Source: a candidate division WOR-3 bacterium (GTDB lineage Bacteria > Hydrothermota > Tepidihabitantia > SM23-42 > JAOAFX01). Taken from it: DNA of 64,000 nt. Below the pieces are notes generated by a model. That model was not told the DNA's origin and searched no databases. It saw only the letters and a list, made by a program, of their open reading frames with translations. The translations under genes and the position numbers were made by a program. The stretch covers positions 3,549 to 67,548 of the forward strand of contig JBDRVV010000009.1 of assembly GCA_039802005.1 (NCBI GenBank), written 5' to 3'. Below, piece by piece: positions 17,986 through 45,917 of the stretch; within the stretch, counting starts at the first letter, position 1, and each line of letters begins with the position of its first letter.

Positions 17986-18013
17986 ATTATATTTATTTTG
18001 TATTTTCATTCAA
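17986..18013 (-). promoter_or_regulatory. Sigma70-like promoter TTGAAT-N16-TATAAT, probably leaderless
   Basis: -10 box 7 nt from ATG at 17978. Confidence 0.6.
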
Positions 18014-18060
18014 TATCCTTAATATTTATATTTAAATTCATCTTCATTTTTGTGAATTAT

Positions 18061-18290
18061 AAAGACCATTTGACCTTAGGCAATAGGCTGATTGCACTTT
18101 TTATTGATGATGGTTTAATGCGAGAGAACGAACCAGAACAGGTTACCGCTATATTAAAAAAACTTGGTATAAAAACAGTAGTGATAAATGCCGCAAATAT
18201 TTTTTTAAGGCATTGAAAGGCAAAGAAAACCCTGAAGAAATGCGTAAGGCATTTTGCGATACATTCTATAAAGCTCTTGGTGATTCCATA
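18061..18290 (+). pseudogene. Remnant of a GMP synthase ATP-pyrophosphatase (GuaA-B/ExsB-like) gene with a -1 frameshift
   Basis: LGNRLIALFIDDGLMRENEPEQV...VINAANIF, then in the -1 frame KALKGKENPEEMRKAF; resembles GuaA GDRL..IFVD.GL.R..E....D...F...L.GV.DPE.KRK; SGGVDS P-loop and C-terminus absent. Confidence 0.7.
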
Positions 18291-18318
18291 TTGACACACA
18301 AAAGAATTTTAATATACT
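18291..18318 (+). promoter_or_regulatory. Sigma70-like promoter TTGACA-N16-TATACT, leaderless
   Basis: -10 box 6 nt before ATG at 18325; no SD sequence. Confidence 0.7.
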
Positions 18319-18324
18319 AAAAAC

Positions 18325-20931
18325 ATGAAGATATTTATAGATTACCTAAAACAAAAGTTACATTCGGGTTGGGTTATTGCCAACCATATCCTGGTTTCAT
18401 TCCATGTTGCCTTTATCTCTTCTGTTTTGTGCATTCCAAAAGGTTTGCAGGGAAAGGAGGTATTAGGATTTGTCTTTACAAGTGTTGATACAATAATCTC
18501 GGCACTCTTCTGGTTTATAAGTTTCCATACCGGGATCGCTATCCACGAGATGGGGCACTATTTGAGGGCGGTTAAATTAAATGCCCTGAATGAAAATATT
18601 TTGCCGGCAGCCCAAAAAAGATATAAAAGCCCAGGATTAAGTAAACTATTCTGGTATTTAGAAATGTTCATCAAAATACCTTATGGAAAATTCACGGGAG
18701 TAAAGAAAGAAGGATTGACATATTATCCAGAAGCCCCATTCAATCTAAGCGTTGCGGCGGCAGGTCCTGAAATCAGTGGTAATATGGCACTTGTGATGTT
18801 GCCGATTGCAGTAATCCTGCTTGCAATTGGACTCATTGGCGACCATATCATTCTCACCTATATTGGCAGATTGTGCCTTGGTATCGGAACTGTAGGATTA
18901 CTTGATTTTCTACTCGCTGACCCCGGAAAATATCGCGAATTCAAAGAAAGGGAAGCAAGGGCGAAAATGAAGGCTGAAAAGATTGAAATTTCTAAAGAAA
19001 GCTGGCTAAATAAGGTCAAACAGGTAAAAGAAATGATGATGACAAAAAGAATTCAGGAAGTCACACTTCCGGATGGTGAAAAACTCCGTGCGCCCTGGCA
19101 ATATCGGAATTGTGGGATGGGTGGTAGGCATACTGAGAAAGAATATCCCGAGAGTAACATAAGTATGCAGGAGATGATGTTTGTTCCACTTTGTGCCAAA
19201 AATTACGAAGAAGCGCAGATGATTACGGTTGCGCTCCAGACACGATTGAAAGAGATTATTGAGAAGAGCGAAGGTGCACGGGTTATGGGAATCGGTCTGG
19301 AAGGTGGACTCGCACCTTATATAAGTAAGGATCCCAATGACATTGTACCAGAACAACGAATGTGGAGAATGGCGGTTCAGGCAATAAGAGACATTGGTTA
19401 TAAACCGGGTGAAGATATCGCCCTTGCCTTTGACCCCGCGGTAAGTGAATTGAGCAATGCATATCGCGAGGAATTCAATCAGCCGGATGCAGTGGGAATG
19501 TATTATTTCTGGCGTGGAGAAGAGAAAGTCGTTATGTCGCGCGACCAGATTGTTGACTTATACAAGAAGACTGTTCAAGAACTTCCTATTGTTATGTTAG
19601 AGGATGGATTTGCAGAAGATGATTATGAAGGATGGCGTCTTGTGATGAAGGAACTTGGCGATAAAATCTTTATTGTTGGTGATGACATCGTAACCACAAA
19701 AGACTCTACAATTGAAAAATGTGCAGATGACGGATTGATGAATGTTTCTCTCATAAAGGCAAATCAGATCGGAACCCTCTCTGAAACTTTAATCGCAATG
19801 CTTGTTGCGTTAGGCAAAGGGATGGATTTACTTGTATCTCATCGTTCTAAATCACCTAATGATGATATGGAGGCACAGATTGCACTTTCCGCAAATACAA
19901 TGGGATTAAAAGCAGGTGGTGGTGCTAACACCGAGCGCCTCTTCAAATATGGCTCAATTACTAAAATAATGAAAGAACTTCAAAGCGCGCGCGATAAAAA
20001 GTTTGATGAAAAAGAGTATGGTGATGTAAGGAATTTCTTAAACAATCTCGTTATAACAGATATTATTGCCTATGAGGAGCCAACCAATGCAGGTATTCCA
20101 AGTGTTGGTGTTAATATTTATGCCGGTATTCCAGGCAGCGAAGCATACAAAAAGATACTAAAAATGACGGGTTCAACGCCATTAGGTACATCGGCTGGAA
20201 CCGGTGAAGCAATCCATCTTGTTGACAGTACAATTGAACGCTCTTCTCTGACTGATAAATATTCAGATTTATTTACTCCCCAACCTGATAAAACATTTAA
20301 ATTCAAGAAAGGGCTCAAAGAATCTGATATCCTTGCGAAGAATGATTCTGAATTGACAGCGCTCTGGCAGAAAGTGCAACGTTATGAAGGGAAAGGCTGT
20401 CTCAATGCGGTCAATAATATCCTGACAATAATTGCCCCGCACTTTATCGGCAAAAAGGTTTCGGAATTTAAGTCAATATCAATGATTGATAAGATATTGT
20501 TAAACCTTGAAAAAGAGACCGCAATCCTCAGAGGTAAACTCGAAAAGAACGCTTCCCAGGATGAAGTCATTGAAATTATGCAGAGAAAAGGAAATCTCGG
20601 AATGAATGCGATACTCTCAGTTTCACTGGCGATGGGCAGGATGATTGCCCATATTCAAGGAAAAGAACTCTGGCAGTTATTAAGAGAAGAAATGAAGCAG
20701 TTAATGGCAAAAGTAATCGCGGCAAATGGCGGATGGGAAATCATAAAGGATGTAGTTCCCCAAGAAAAAGCATCTGCAATACAATCAGCCAAAGAAAATC
20801 TTGTGTCTGTTTTACAAAAAGAATTAACATTTGAAAACCTTGTAAAATGTCTCCAGAATGTTGAAAAAAGGTTGAAAAAAGAAAACAAAAAACTCTATCA
20901 GGCTTTAAGAGAGCAGGCACAGATTTATTGA
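18325..20931 (+). CDS. M50 (site-2 protease)-like membrane domain fused to a circularly permuted enolase
   Basis: aa ~1-205: TM helices, HEMGH, AAAGP; aa ~250-552: enolase barrel motifs (GGRH, QE, EGG, FDPAVSE, LEDG, VGDD, IKANQIG, SHRS, LKAG, ERLFKY); aa ~576-790: enolase N-domain motifs (GTSAG..EA, RYEGKG..AV.N, LGMNAILSVSLA). Confidence 0.88.
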   Translation: MKIFIDYLKQKLHSGWVIANHILVSFHVAFISSVLCIPKGLQGKEVLGFVFTSVDTIISALFWFISFHTGIAIHEMGHYLRAVKLNALNENILPAAQKRYKSPGLSKLFWYLEMFIKIPYGKFTGVKKEGLTYYPEAPFNLSVAAAGPEISGNMALVMLPIAVILLAIGLIGDHIILTYIGRLCLGIGTVGLLDFLLADPGKYREFKEREARAKMKAEKIEISKESWLNKVKQVKEMMMTKRIQEVTLPDGEKLRAPWQYRNCGMGGRHTEKEYPESNISMQEMMFVPLCAKNYEEAQMITVALQTRLKEIIEKSEGARVMGIGLEGGLAPYISKDPNDIVPEQRMWRMAVQAIRDIGYKPGEDIALAFDPAVSELSNAYREEFNQPDAVGMYYFWRGEEKVVMSRDQIVDLYKKTVQELPIVMLEDGFAEDDYEGWRLVMKELGDKIFIVGDDIVTTKDSTIEKCADDGLMNVSLIKANQIGTLSETLIAMLVALGKGMDLLVSHRSKSPNDDMEAQIALSANTMGLKAGGGANTERLFKYGSITKIMKELQSARDKKFDEKEYGDVRNFLNNLVITDIIAYEEPTNAGIPSVGVNIYAGIPGSEAYKKILKMTGSTPLGTSAGTGEAIHLVDSTIERSSLTDKYSDLFTPQPDKTFKFKKGLKESDILAKNDSELTALWQKVQRYEGKGCLNAVNNILTIIAPHFIGKKVSEFKSISMIDKILLNLEKETAILRGKLEKNASQDEVIEIMQRKGNLGMNAILSVSLAMGRMIAHIQGKELWQLLREEMKQLMAKVIAANGGWEIIKDVVPQEKASAIQSAKENLVSVLQKELTFENLVKCLQNVEKRLKKENKKLYQALREQAQIY

Positions 20932-21074: not shown

Positions 21075-22742
21075 ATGTCTATTACAGCAAAAACATTCTG
21101 GGATATTGAAAAAGAAAAGACAACTGTAATATATGCAATTTTTGGAGTTCTTGTATTTTTTTATTTTTTTTCTTTTTTTATCATCTGGACTATATTTAAA
21201 CTTTTAATTTATGTAAGGCTTCAACTGGAAAATCCTCATATCCGTTTCCATCTCTTCGGCTCGGATACATTAATCGTATTTATTATTGCCCTCATACTTG
21301 CAATCATGCACTGGTTTTACACAAATCGTAATGTTGTTGAAAAAATTTTAAAATTGCTTAATGCGAAGCCACCGGATAAAAACGACCGTTATCATTATGT
21401 CTTCAAAAATATTGTGGAAGAAATCAGCATTGCTGCAGGTAAAATAGCGGTTGAACCTTATATCGTTCCAACTATAGCAATGAATGCATTTGCACTCCAG
21501 GATATTTATGGTAGAAATGTCATAGGTGTAACCGAAGGGCTCATATCAAGATTAAATCGAGATGAACTCCAGGCAGTCCTTGCCCATGAAATGGCACATA
21601 TTGTATCAAATGATTCATTATTAACAACTGTAGCAAGTTCACTATTTGGAGTATATAATGAAATGCTCAACGGCATTGTAAATAATATCAGCAAAATGAA
21701 TCGGGCTGACGAAGATATTCCTTTTAGTAAAAGCCAAAAGAATGCCGCTGCGGCCGGTTTGGTCTTCCTACCTGTATTTATCTGTCTTTTAATAATGAGT
21801 TTTTTATCCCAACTTCTATATGTTTTTATCTCGCGTGAAAAAGAATATCGGGCAGATGTGAACGCAATAAAATATACCAGAAATCCTTTGAGTCTCGCCC
21901 GTGCCCTTTATAAAATAGCAACCCATTATCGTGGGACTGCAAGTTATCTGGCACCAATTTTTATCTTAAGTCCTGAGGCAAATCCACTTGAAGAGCGAGA
22001 AGATTTTTTTGCAAACTTATTCTCCACCCACCCCCCTTTCACAAAAAGGCTTCAACTAATCCTTGACCAGGCGCACGCTGACTTAAGCCAGATTACCGAA
22101 GAGATTTATAAAATACCACGAAGTGAAGAACAGACAAAACCAACCAAGTCTGAAATTTTTATAAAAAAAGAAGAAAGATGGCTTGGACCTTATACATTGC
22201 TTCAACTCCAATCTTTAGACTTTTTAACCCCTGATACCGAGGTTAAAATTAAAGGTACCGAACAGATAGTAAAGGCAGAATCAATTCCTGCATTAGACCA
22301 TTATTTTAAAATAAAAAATACTCCTCTGTGGAAGATGCGACGTATATGCCCGGTATGTAATGAATGGTTAATAGTCCAGGAATATGAGGGATTGTATGTC
22401 TGGCGTTGTGCATTTTGCGATGGGCTACTTGTGGAAAGAGAAAAACTGCCGAGAATAATTGTGCGCGAAGAAAAAGAATTTTCTGAAGAGACCATACGTA
22501 TCGCATCTTTTATTCTTGCTGAAGCCAAAAAGAAAAAACCAAATTTCAAATTGCTCATAGAGACCGTTAACAAGAGAAAATGCCCAAAATGTGGTAAACC
22601 GATGGTGCGTAAATTGTATAGTTATGTATACCATATTGAGATTGACGAGTGTAATGAATGTAATTTAATCTGGTTTGATAAAAATGAACTTGAGATATTA
22701 CAATGTTTAATTGAAATGGAGGAAAAAGATGGAAAAGGATAA
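21075..22742 (+). CDS. HtpX-like M48 zinc metalloprotease with C-terminal GYF-like motif and two zinc ribbons
   Basis: TM segments, NAFA, HEMAH, SREKEYRAD, STHPP; WLGPY; CPVC..CAFCDG and CPKC..CNEC..WFD. Confidence 0.85.
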   Translation: MSITAKTFWDIEKEKTTVIYAIFGVLVFFYFFSFFIIWTIFKLLIYVRLQLENPHIRFHLFGSDTLIVFIIALILAIMHWFYTNRNVVEKILKLLNAKPPDKNDRYHYVFKNIVEEISIAAGKIAVEPYIVPTIAMNAFALQDIYGRNVIGVTEGLISRLNRDELQAVLAHEMAHIVSNDSLLTTVASSLFGVYNEMLNGIVNNISKMNRADEDIPFSKSQKNAAAAGLVFLPVFICLLIMSFLSQLLYVFISREKEYRADVNAIKYTRNPLSLARALYKIATHYRGTASYLAPIFILSPEANPLEEREDFFANLFSTHPPFTKRLQLILDQAHADLSQITEEIYKIPRSEEQTKPTKSEIFIKKEERWLGPYTLLQLQSLDFLTPDTEVKIKGTEQIVKAESIPALDHYFKIKNTPLWKMRRICPVCNEWLIVQEYEGLYVWRCAFCDGLLVEREKLPRIIVREEKEFSEETIRIASFILAEAKKKKPNFKLLIETVNKRKCPKCGKPMVRKLYSYVYHIEIDECNECNLIWFDKNELEILQCLIEMEEKDGKG

Positions 22743-44864: not shown

Positions 44865-45917
44865 TTAAAATATTGAAAAAGGCTGGGGGATAAAGGTAAG
44901 TATTAATACAATCAATGCGATTAATGCATATATTTTTTCTTTCTTTGAAAGCGGTGTTAACGCATCCTGTATTAGAGGCTCTCTGCGGGCAAGTATAAAA
45001 GCAAGCAAGCCCCAAATTATCCATCCCTGCCAGAGGATTCCAAATCCAATTAGTACAATAATAAGAGGTAAATAGAGTTTTTTCTGATTTTTCAATAAAA
45101 CACTATAGGCTATATGACCACCATCAAGCTGACCAATTGGCATTAGATTCATTGATGTAACCAGAAATCCAATCCAGCCTGCAAATGCCATTGGGTGTAA
45201 AAATATATCCATACCTTCCGGTATTGAAGGATGAAATATTCTCCCCAAGACAAAAAACAATAATGAATCGCCCAATCTTAAATAAGTTCCAGTAGCTGGC
45301 GCTTGTTTAACCTCAGAAAGCATGATACCAATTATTGAGGCAATCAGTGCAACGAAAAATCCCGATAATGGTCCTGCCATTCCAATTCTCAGCAATGCCT
45401 TTCTTGAAGGAACGATTGATTTCATTCTAATGATGGCACCGAATGTGCCTAAAAAATGGAATGGAACAGGAATGAAATAAGGCAGACTCGTAACCAGCCC
45501 ATATCTTCTTGAAATAAAATAATGTCCAAGTTCATGACAGGTAAGGATTGCCATAAGCGAGAATGAAAATGGAATACCCAAAAAAATATCTGAAAAGTTC
45601 GTCAGGGGATTACCCCCGCTGTTGAATGAGCCAGCAAGAAGTGTAGTAAAAATTGTCGCTACAAATAACAAAACATTCAGCCATATCTTAGGTTTATCAA
45701 CAATTTTAGGAAAAACACCTATAGTCACTTTATGATACATACCTTCTTGGCTGAATAAAGGAGTGCAGTCATACTGAGAACAAAAATCTTTTATCTCTTC
45801 AATCGTCTGCTCAAGTGGTTCGTATATTTTGCCATAAAACGCAATAAACTGTACACCCTGTGCTGTATCAACAATAAACATTTTCTTTTCAAGAAAGTGC
45901 ATTATCTCTTCGTTCAT
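44865..45917 (-). CDS. Site-2 protease (M50) family protein
   Basis: HELGH, GTFGA, MAGP, NLMPIGQLDGGH. Confidence 0.92.
   Translation of the reverse strand: MNEEIMHFLEKKMFIVDTAQGVQFIAFYGKIYEPLEQTIEEIKDFCSQYDCTPLFSQEGMYHKVTIGVFPKIVDKPKIWLNVLLFVATIFTTLLAGSFNSGGNPLTNFSDIFLGIPFSFSLMAILTCHELGHYFISRRYGLVTSLPYFIPVPFHFLGTFGAIIRMKSIVPSRKALLRIGMAGPLSGFFVALIASIIGIMLSEVKQAPATGTYLRLGDSLLFFVLGRIFHPSIPEGMDIFLHPMAFAGWIGFLVTSMNLMPIGQLDGGHIAYSVLLKNQKKLYLPLIIVLIGFGILWQGWIIWGLLAFILARREPLIQDALTPLSKKEKIYALIALIVLILTFIPQPFSIF

Follow-up and report, generated by a model that had tools for sequence, protein, structure and literature searches.

Enolase is among the most invariant enzymes of central metabolism and is normally soluble. 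Among the site-2 proteases (S2Ps; M50, PF02163), the CBS-type enzymes SpoIVFB of Bacillus subtilis and MjS2P of Methanocaldococcus jannaschii contain six transmembrane (TM) helices in their solved structures. The S2P core consists of three TM segments with the HExxH and LDG motifs and a reentrant beta-loop between the first two (PMC10202637, PMC11486902); this loop lies between TM2 and TM3 (PMC11486902). In CBS-type S2Ps substrate docking falls to the interdomain linker, whose position is set by the soluble domain (PMC11486902), and a review of the family names only the PDZ, CBS and domain-less groups (PMC10202637). The gene described here, at 18325..20931 on the forward strand of a 64,000-nucleotide stretch of contig JBDRVV010000009.1 from a candidate division WOR-3 bacterium (assembly GCA_039802005.1; the whole stretch is called the window), encodes an 868-residue protein in which an S2P-like membrane domain is joined to a circularly permuted enolase. 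The reading favoured below, which we regard as fairly probable, is that of a housekeeping enolase tethered to the membrane by an S2P-derived zinc site, which probably remains catalytic. Full-text literature searches turned up no account of an enolase that is permuted, anchored in the membrane or fused to an S2P, and the word enolase is absent from the main text of a paper on WOR-3 metabolism; no published description of this design was thus found.

As delimited by its open reading frame (ORF), Pfam matches and the family alignment, the protein comprises the membrane domain, a linker, the permuted enolase and a C-terminal tail, in agreement with the earlier note on this DNA, which had assigned the membrane domain and a permuted enolase to one ORF. 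The TIM-barrel domain (19111..20004, +) was recognized as Enolase_C at residues 266-555 (179.9 bits against a cut-off of 21.5, E 9e-53) and precedes the relocated N-terminal or cap domain (20047..20694, +), recognized as Enolase_N at residues 682-786 (44.7 bits against a cut-off of 35, E 2e-11). PDB enolases align in the same reversed order, chain residues 57-134 falling on residues 685-786 of the ORF (query 431-532 of a 614-residue fragment that starts at residue 255), and TIGR01060 matched in two stretches with 233.9 bits, below its equivalog cut-off of 300. Residues H269, E283, E326, D370, E426, D454, K478, H506-R507-S508, K529 and S623, aligned to PDB enolases, are invariant in 28 diverse relatives, as is P619-G625, part of the PLGTS623AGTGEA loop of the cap domain, in the family alignment. 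With residue roles that we take to be those of the yeast and Escherichia coli enzymes, the predicted catalytic and metal-binding set is complete. The fusion thereby shares both domains and the full residue set of canonical enolase (EC 4.2.1.11; PF03952 + PF00113; TIGR01060; e.g., PDB 4A3R) but differs in having the barrel before the cap, in its membrane anchor, in an extra 78-residue tail and in the replacement of SHRSGETED by SHRSKSPNDD and of GDEGG by GLEGG.

A Kyte-Doolittle scan detected four hydrophobic segments in the membrane domain (residues 16-41, 46-67, 147-183, and 175-198); the enolase part is free of them. Lys and Arg residues are clustered at the N-terminus, in the loop 79-140 and after residue 198, as expected of positive-inside loops, and the simplest topology would be that of four TM helices with both termini inside the cell, leaving predicted periplasmic loops of only about 7 and about 4 residues. 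The AlphaFold model of this domain (pLDDT 82.8, pTM 0.72), which was read for the positions of its elements and not for its coordinates, contains in order TM1, a long HExxH helix, a hairpin, a G-P helix, an Asp helix and a linker helix. Based on hydropathy, the model and conservation, TM1 (residues 16-38; 18370..18438, +; model helix 16-36) carries the conserved residues A19, N20, H21, S25, F26, and H27, and TM2 (residues 46-72) runs into HEMGH (residues 74-78, nucleotides 18544-18558), the two together occupying 18460..18558 (+), with the motif at the cytoplasmic end of one long model helix (54-84). The beta-hairpin IPYGKFTGVKKEGLTYYPE (residues 118-136; 18676..18732, +), supported by model strands 126-129 and 132-135 and by hhalign, contains the invariant P119, G121, and G125, takes the place of the membrane-reentrant beta-loop of S2Ps and is followed by TM3 (residues 141-171; 18745..18837, +; model, conservation and hhalign), which begins with AAAGPEIS (residues 144-151; G147-P148-x-x-S151). 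TM4 (residues 175-197; 18847..18933, +) bears R182 and D194 and is followed by D199-P-G at a helix break, the next model helix spanning residues 200-219; both Asp residues belong to LLDFLLADPGKY (residues 192-203, LLD194FLLAD199PGKY). The hydrophobic helices, HEMGH, AGP and the downstream Asp are therefore located where the earlier note had reported them. The domain holds buried polar residues in excess of what a single zinc site would require, with N20, H21, S25, and H27 in TM1, H68 before HExxH and R182 in TM4 being invariant or nearly so.

Across 28 diverse full-length proteins, H74, E75, H78, A145, G147, P148, S151, D194, and D199 are invariant, and the same set, with R182 added and G147 excepted, is invariant across 58 N-domains of different phyla. 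The conservation of HExxH among homologs had been set beforehand as a test of the proposal; the motif is present in 58/58 N-domains and, together with AGP and D....DxG, in each of the 114 full-length relatives that contain the region, far more than chance would allow. Five apparent exceptions are gene calls of 787-795 residues with only 183-192 residues before the barrel junction, consistent with a predicted start at Met76, inside HEMGH; public calls of several homologs (P0019, P0068, P0069, P0072, and P0076; 556-795 residues) are equally short before the junction, and such a start would remove TM1, TM2 and the zinc motif from the annotation. When representatives were clustered at 50% identity, 80 of 90 kept HExxH; among the rest are HMxxH (twice), HQxxH, HHxxH and four proteins that lack the motif altogether. 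The divergent representatives lose D199 less often than D194, and nearly all of them have G147-P148, which persists in the most divergent relatives. An invariant Asp at the equivalent helix break makes a third zinc ligand plausible, D199 being the best candidate. Over 56 distant loci the N-domain and the enolase part are conserved to the same degree (52.7% vs 52.2% identity), which is unusual for a mere anchor.

The fused ORF is the only Enolase_C match in its own genome (97.6% complete), which also encodes PGK, a 923-residue PPDK-like protein and a 587-residue Enzyme-I-like protein, and only the fusion is found in three further genomes of the genus and one of a sister family, all 98-99% complete. 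As carriers are all uncultured metagenome-assembled genomes (MAGs) or single-amplified genomes (SAGs), gene absence in them rests on completeness estimates. In sister lineages a canonical eno of 424-443 residues adjoins the fusion; it is immediately downstream in 11 of 80 loci, as in L019, where a 436-residue eno starts 79 bp after the fusion. Among 50 carrier genomes across phyla, 35 hold both genes and 15 have no intact canonical eno. In an Ignavibacteria-labelled MAG (L145:10843-11001, equivalent to G161:C1:42718-42885) an Enolase_C remnant of 52-57 residues with in-frame stops directly follows the fusion and precedes a Y1 transposase, divIC and recO, and has the appearance of a canonical eno decaying beside the fused one. 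The repeated loss of canonical eno argues that the fused enzyme does the glycolytic job, and sole-enolase status together with PGK and phosphoenolpyruvate (PEP)-using enzymes lends indirect support to its predicted role in the interconversion of 2-phosphoglycerate (2-PG) and PEP in vivo. The tethering of enolase to the membrane, offered in the earlier note as one of two possible roles, is well supported.

The design is widespread. A word-indexed search brought up over 100 full-length relatives with 50-90% identity, which belong to WOR-3, Cloacimonadota, Hydrogenedentes and unclassified MAGs and go under the names "hypothetical protein" or "enolase". A scan of one genome per species found relatives in 265 species of about ten phyla; the carriers include Stahlbacteria, Omnitrophota, Aminicenantes/Acidobacteriota, Planctomycetota, Ignavibacteria, Gemmatimonadota, Eiseniibacteriota and two Asgard MAGs. 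From the 265 species matches 80 loci were fetched, and in 80/80 the N-domain and the enolase share a single uninterrupted frame, three being cut at a contig end. A HMMER profile of the 58 N-domains retrieved 147 proteins at E<=1e-3 from 1.84 billion cluster representatives, and all 12 long cluster representatives scanned contain the N-domain, then Enolase_C, then Enolase_N, some with large N-terminal extensions. The suspicion that homologs would usually occur as two separate genes was not borne out in either set. Fragments aside, the membrane domain was not found without permuted enolase among the matches examined, and permutation and fusion always occur together in the relatives examined. The idea that the permutation frees a new N-terminus for the fusion is not compelling, as canonical enolase also has a free N-terminus. 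In the two Asgard MAGs, labelled Promethearchaeota and Sifarchaeum (L047 and L048), the fusion, at about 52% identity, lies beside a canonical enolase on the opposite strand, and its presence in Asgard bins could be due to horizontal transfer or to a binning error.

The unit also occurs in much longer proteins. In about 20 of 50 carrier genomes (about 40%), forms or open frames of roughly 1,800-2,400 residues or longer were detected at the enolase matches. In P0124 (2114 residues), the one long form scanned for PPDK-type domains, the permuted enolase is followed by about 1,200 residues that include a PPDK_N ATP-grasp domain and, C-terminally, a PEP-utilizers phosphohistidine swivel domain; the PEP-utilizers_C barrel was not found in this protein. 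The unit was also observed deep inside giant proteins, namely P0136 (6041 residues, N-domain at 1786-2037), P0175 (4136 residues) and a 15690-residue open frame of an Omnitrophota SAG (G189:C13, L068).

The kinship of the membrane domain to S2Ps was approached by profile and motif comparisons. Peptidase_M50 is the only recurrent Pfam family, matched by 53 of the 58 N-domains at E<=1 (best 4.3e-6), and a precomputed PF02163 match exists in 4 of 120 relatives; in the protein described here the match is below threshold (E 0.09, residues 65-225 on profile positions 4-106 of 221). In hhalign, the N-domain aligned to the profile of a 350-residue M50 type, built from the same phylum, with 68.5% probability (E 4.6e-5, 63 columns), rising to 76.5% with a deeper N-domain alignment, and the 63-67 aligned columns run from HExxH through a G-x-F-G-V beta region to AAGP. 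Against a 213-residue M50 type the probability was 11-16%, only the HExxH helix being aligned at 11.5%. Unrelated controls gave 0.2-2.3%, among them an M48 membrane protease, which also carries HExxH, with 1-2%, and two true M50 types aligned to each other with 95.4% over 148 columns including NxxPxxxxDG. The 350-residue type, the more informative one in these comparisons, is encoded in the window itself, at 44865-45917 (-), as a canonical M50 protease (HELGH … MAGP … NLMPIGQLDGGH) that served as positive control for profile and fold comparisons; the genome encodes three ordinary M50 genes, including a 437-residue RseP-like gene.

Two hallmarks of M50 are found in the fusion: HExxH stands at the end of a TM helix (HEMGH in helix 54-84, after the hydrophobic segment 46-67), and a second core helix with the invariant G147-P148-x-x-S151 follows a hairpin (strands 126-135). 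A G-P-x-x-N/S/G-type motif is said to have been given by Kinch and colleagues in 2006 as the definition of the second helix in site-2 proteases, and M50s of the same genome carry AGP-x-x-N and AGP-x-x-G. The order of the elements is the same in the N-domain model and in the modelled true M50, and the motifs are at similar depths within the helices. Altogether, it is likely that the N-domain is a strongly remodelled descendant of the S2P core, although it should not be filed as an ordinary member of M50.

As in CBS-type S2Ps, a TM helix of the fusion bears HExxH close to its cytoplasmic end, and antiparallel beta-strands, an A-G-P helix and a helix ending in Asp, a zinc ligand in S2Ps and a predicted one in the fusion, come next in the same order; both continue with an interdomain linker helix in the cytoplasm and a soluble ligand-binding domain at the C-terminus, and neither has a periplasmic PDZ domain. 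The fusion differs in having four TM helices rather than six, an insert of about 40 residues forming two helices between HExxH and the hairpin, G-L-L-D-F-L-L-A-D-P-G in place of NxxPxxxxDG, and a whole permuted enolase instead of CBS as the appended domain, and it has no Foldseek match to 3B4R or 8VJM. With the RseP-type S2Ps (group I, PDZ-bearing) it has in common HExxH, the beta-loop and the AGP-type helix; unlike them it lacks PDZ and has virtually no periplasmic exposure, so that only the cytoplasm or the bilayer is left as a source of regulation, and no anti-sigma partner is encoded nearby.

The favoured reading may be put in terms of two modules. Module 1 (residues 1-200) would be a four-helix inner-membrane domain with both ends and a 60-residue loop in the cytoplasm and almost nothing in the periplasm, derived from the three-helix catalytic core of S2Ps; because the HExxH helix, the beta-hairpin, the G-P-x-x-S helix and, where the last helix reaches the cytoplasm, the Asp (D199, with D194) all appear to be retained, zinc binding has most likely persisted and hydrolase activity probably has too. 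Module 2 (residues 263-790) would be a cytoplasmic enolase with barrel and cap swapped and the catalytic set complete. With canonical eno apparently lost in the genus, the fusion would carry the 2-PG/PEP step of the cell as a dimeric or higher-order enolase held at the inner membrane face by the four-helix domain. The zinc site (H74, H78 and probably D199, with E75 as general base) is expected at the cytoplasmic interface, directly above the charged linker. By analogy with S2Ps of the SpoIVFB/MjS2P type (TM core, linker, cytosolic CBS), this linker and the enolase may replace the linker and ligand-binding domain and could dock or gate a membrane substrate. Metal binding by the membrane domain is very probable, and its ability to cleave peptide bonds is evenly balanced. 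A still-catalytic site is favoured because the non-ligand catalytic Glu, the hairpin and the G-P helix are invariant and the conservation of the domain equals that of the enolase.

Several observations weigh against this reading. In remote clades that keep the enolase, Met, Gln or His stands in place of the Glu or no HExxH motif is left at all, so that the two activities are separable and the membrane domain can persist without catalysis. The full protein reaches an M50 score of 12.5 bits and its residues 1-262 one of 14.1 bits, against a PF02163 gathering threshold of 27.2, and canonical NxxPxxxxDG is absent, as G191-L-L-D194-F-L-L-A-D199-P-G has no Asn or Pro at the canonical positions; neither greedy nor global hhalign could place the last helix on that motif. 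No S2P (3B4R, 8VJM, 7W6X) appeared among the 50 listed Foldseek matches of the N-domain model, which were noise resembling G-protein-coupled receptors (best E 0.12). A modelled bona fide M50 of the same genome retrieved MjS2P (3B4R, E 1.8e-5), SpoIVFB and RseP as its top nine matches; this rules out the idea that Foldseek misses all-helical membrane folds, and the negative result for the N-domain therefore counts. A PDB sequence search with the N-domain profile gave nothing at E<=10, and the long matches scanned from the HMMER search of 1.84 billion proteins included no canonical M50, all being permuted-enolase fusions. Neighbourhood clustering of the 80 loci revealed no neighbour conserved across phyla, synteny being lineage-specific only; no substrate or partner can therefore be named, and the neighbourhood analysis for substrates suggested in the earlier note yielded no candidate. 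Of the M50 identity proposed there, the profile and hhalign similarity gives partial support (68-76% vs <=2.3%, in the only recurrent Pfam family), whereas the score stayed below the cut-off, the third motif is missing and the proposed M50 fold was not recovered.

Some of these observations would suit an S2P-derived domain that has become a pseudo-protease and only tethers, and perhaps dimerises, the enolase, its zinc site being structural and cleaving no peptide bond. The clades without Glu or without the motif, the remodelled LDG motif, the fold search and the lack of a conserved substrate gene all agree with it, and the PPDK-type modules of the long forms suggest a family built around membrane PEP metabolism and not around signalling. 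However, Glu75 is not a metal ligand and is nevertheless invariant in the main clade across about ten phyla, the beta-hairpin and the G-P helix, which handle substrate in S2Ps, are invariant as well, and simple anchors usually drift, whereas this domain is conserved to the same degree as the enolase. A purely structural anchor is thus considered possible but rather unlikely.

More doubtful is the view that the domain is no kin of S2Ps, being instead a new four-helix membrane metal-binding domain with a convergent HExxH and another metal-dependent role linked to enolase/PEP, for instance ion binding or the hydrolysis of a substrate other than a peptide. The Foldseek result with its working control, the empty PDB search, the lack of canonical M50 among the HMMER matches and the unalignable third motif speak for such a domain, as do the extra invariant polar residues N20, H21, H27, and H68 (TM1/TM2) and R182 (TM4). 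Convergence is difficult to reconcile with M50 being the sole recurrent Pfam family (53/58), with an hhalign probability of 68-76% over 63-67 columns covering HExxH, the beta-hairpin and AAGP against 1-2% for M48, and with motif order and within-helix positions that match the modelled M50. An artefact in which an adjacent small membrane-protein gene and enolase were joined by an assembly or frameshift error is refuted by the uninterrupted frame in 80 independent assemblies of many studies and in more than 100 database proteins.

Beyond a tethered and probably catalytic domain, the fusion might represent a new class of intramembrane protease with a live glycolytic enzyme as sensor of lower-glycolytic flux, which is judged improbable. 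Binding or turnover of 2-PG/PEP would close the cap loops, the signal would pass through the conserved linker to the S2P-type zinc site, and cleavage of a membrane protein would trigger a response in transcription or in membrane remodelling; gating of the cleavage by 2-PG/PEP, one of the roles put forward in the earlier note, is likewise held to be unlikely. In the long forms the fusion unit could be wired to PPDK-type ATP-grasp and phosphohistidine swivel domains as a membrane-bound PEP-handling machine.

Between the modules, the charged helical linker (residues 200-262; 18922..19110, +; 17 K/R and 11 D/E), defined by the model and hydropathy, ends in two strands that enter the barrel, and R209, E210, A213, W227, R242, Q244, P257, and W258 are conserved in the 58 N-domains. 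The 78-residue C-terminal tail (residues 791-868; 20695..20928, +) matched no Pfam family and, in the family alignment, is conserved through the final residue (L857, R862, and Y868; pattern ...LYQxLREQxxxY); it might dock back on the membrane domain or on a partner.

A sigma-70-type promoter, TTGACA (18291-18296), a 16-nt spacer and TATACT (18313-18318), lies at 18291..18318 (+) and matches the consensus in 11 of 12 positions, with the -10 element ending 6 nt before the ATG and no Shine-Dalgarno sequence before it. The -35 element, the spacer, the -10 element and the 5-6-nt gap to the ATG are invariant in 12 relatives, while the sequence further upstream has diverged, a phylogenetic footprint consistent with a leaderless transcript. 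At the sequence level the claim that the gene has its own leaderless promoter is thus upheld, and the mRNA is probably leaderless. Upstream of the promoter, a 346-bp intergenic region contains a 72-residue ORF (17998-18216, +; …FIDDGLMRENEPEQV…) that by eye resembles a GMP-synthase ATP-pyrophosphatase fragment but has no Pfam match. The genes upstream of the fusion are smc, ftsY and a divergently transcribed VTT/DedA-family gene. The next gene downstream (21075-22742, +) encodes a 555-residue M48 (HtpX-like) membrane metalloprotease with C-terminal TFIIB-type zinc ribbons, which follows the fusion on the same strand in 11 loci of the WOR-3 lineage only, some with canonical eno in between; in Planctomycetota loci, lineage-specific small membrane proteins are encoded nearby.

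This family joins a rearranged enolase permanently to a membrane domain of protease-like character, and several lineages, including that of the source organism, have no other enolase. Annotation pipelines call the fusions "hypothetical" or simply "enolase", or place their start at Met76 within HEMGH, so that enolase may be miscounted and the membrane module overlooked when the metabolism of WOR-3, Planctomycetota, Omnitrophota and other groups is reconstructed. Even if the membrane domain is an anchor only, the 2-PG/PEP flux of a whole cell can still run at the membrane. If it is catalytic, the fusions would constitute a fifth architectural group of S2Ps, besides those with PDZ, with CBS or with no extra domain, and a candidate direct link between glycolytic flux and regulated intramembrane proteolysis.

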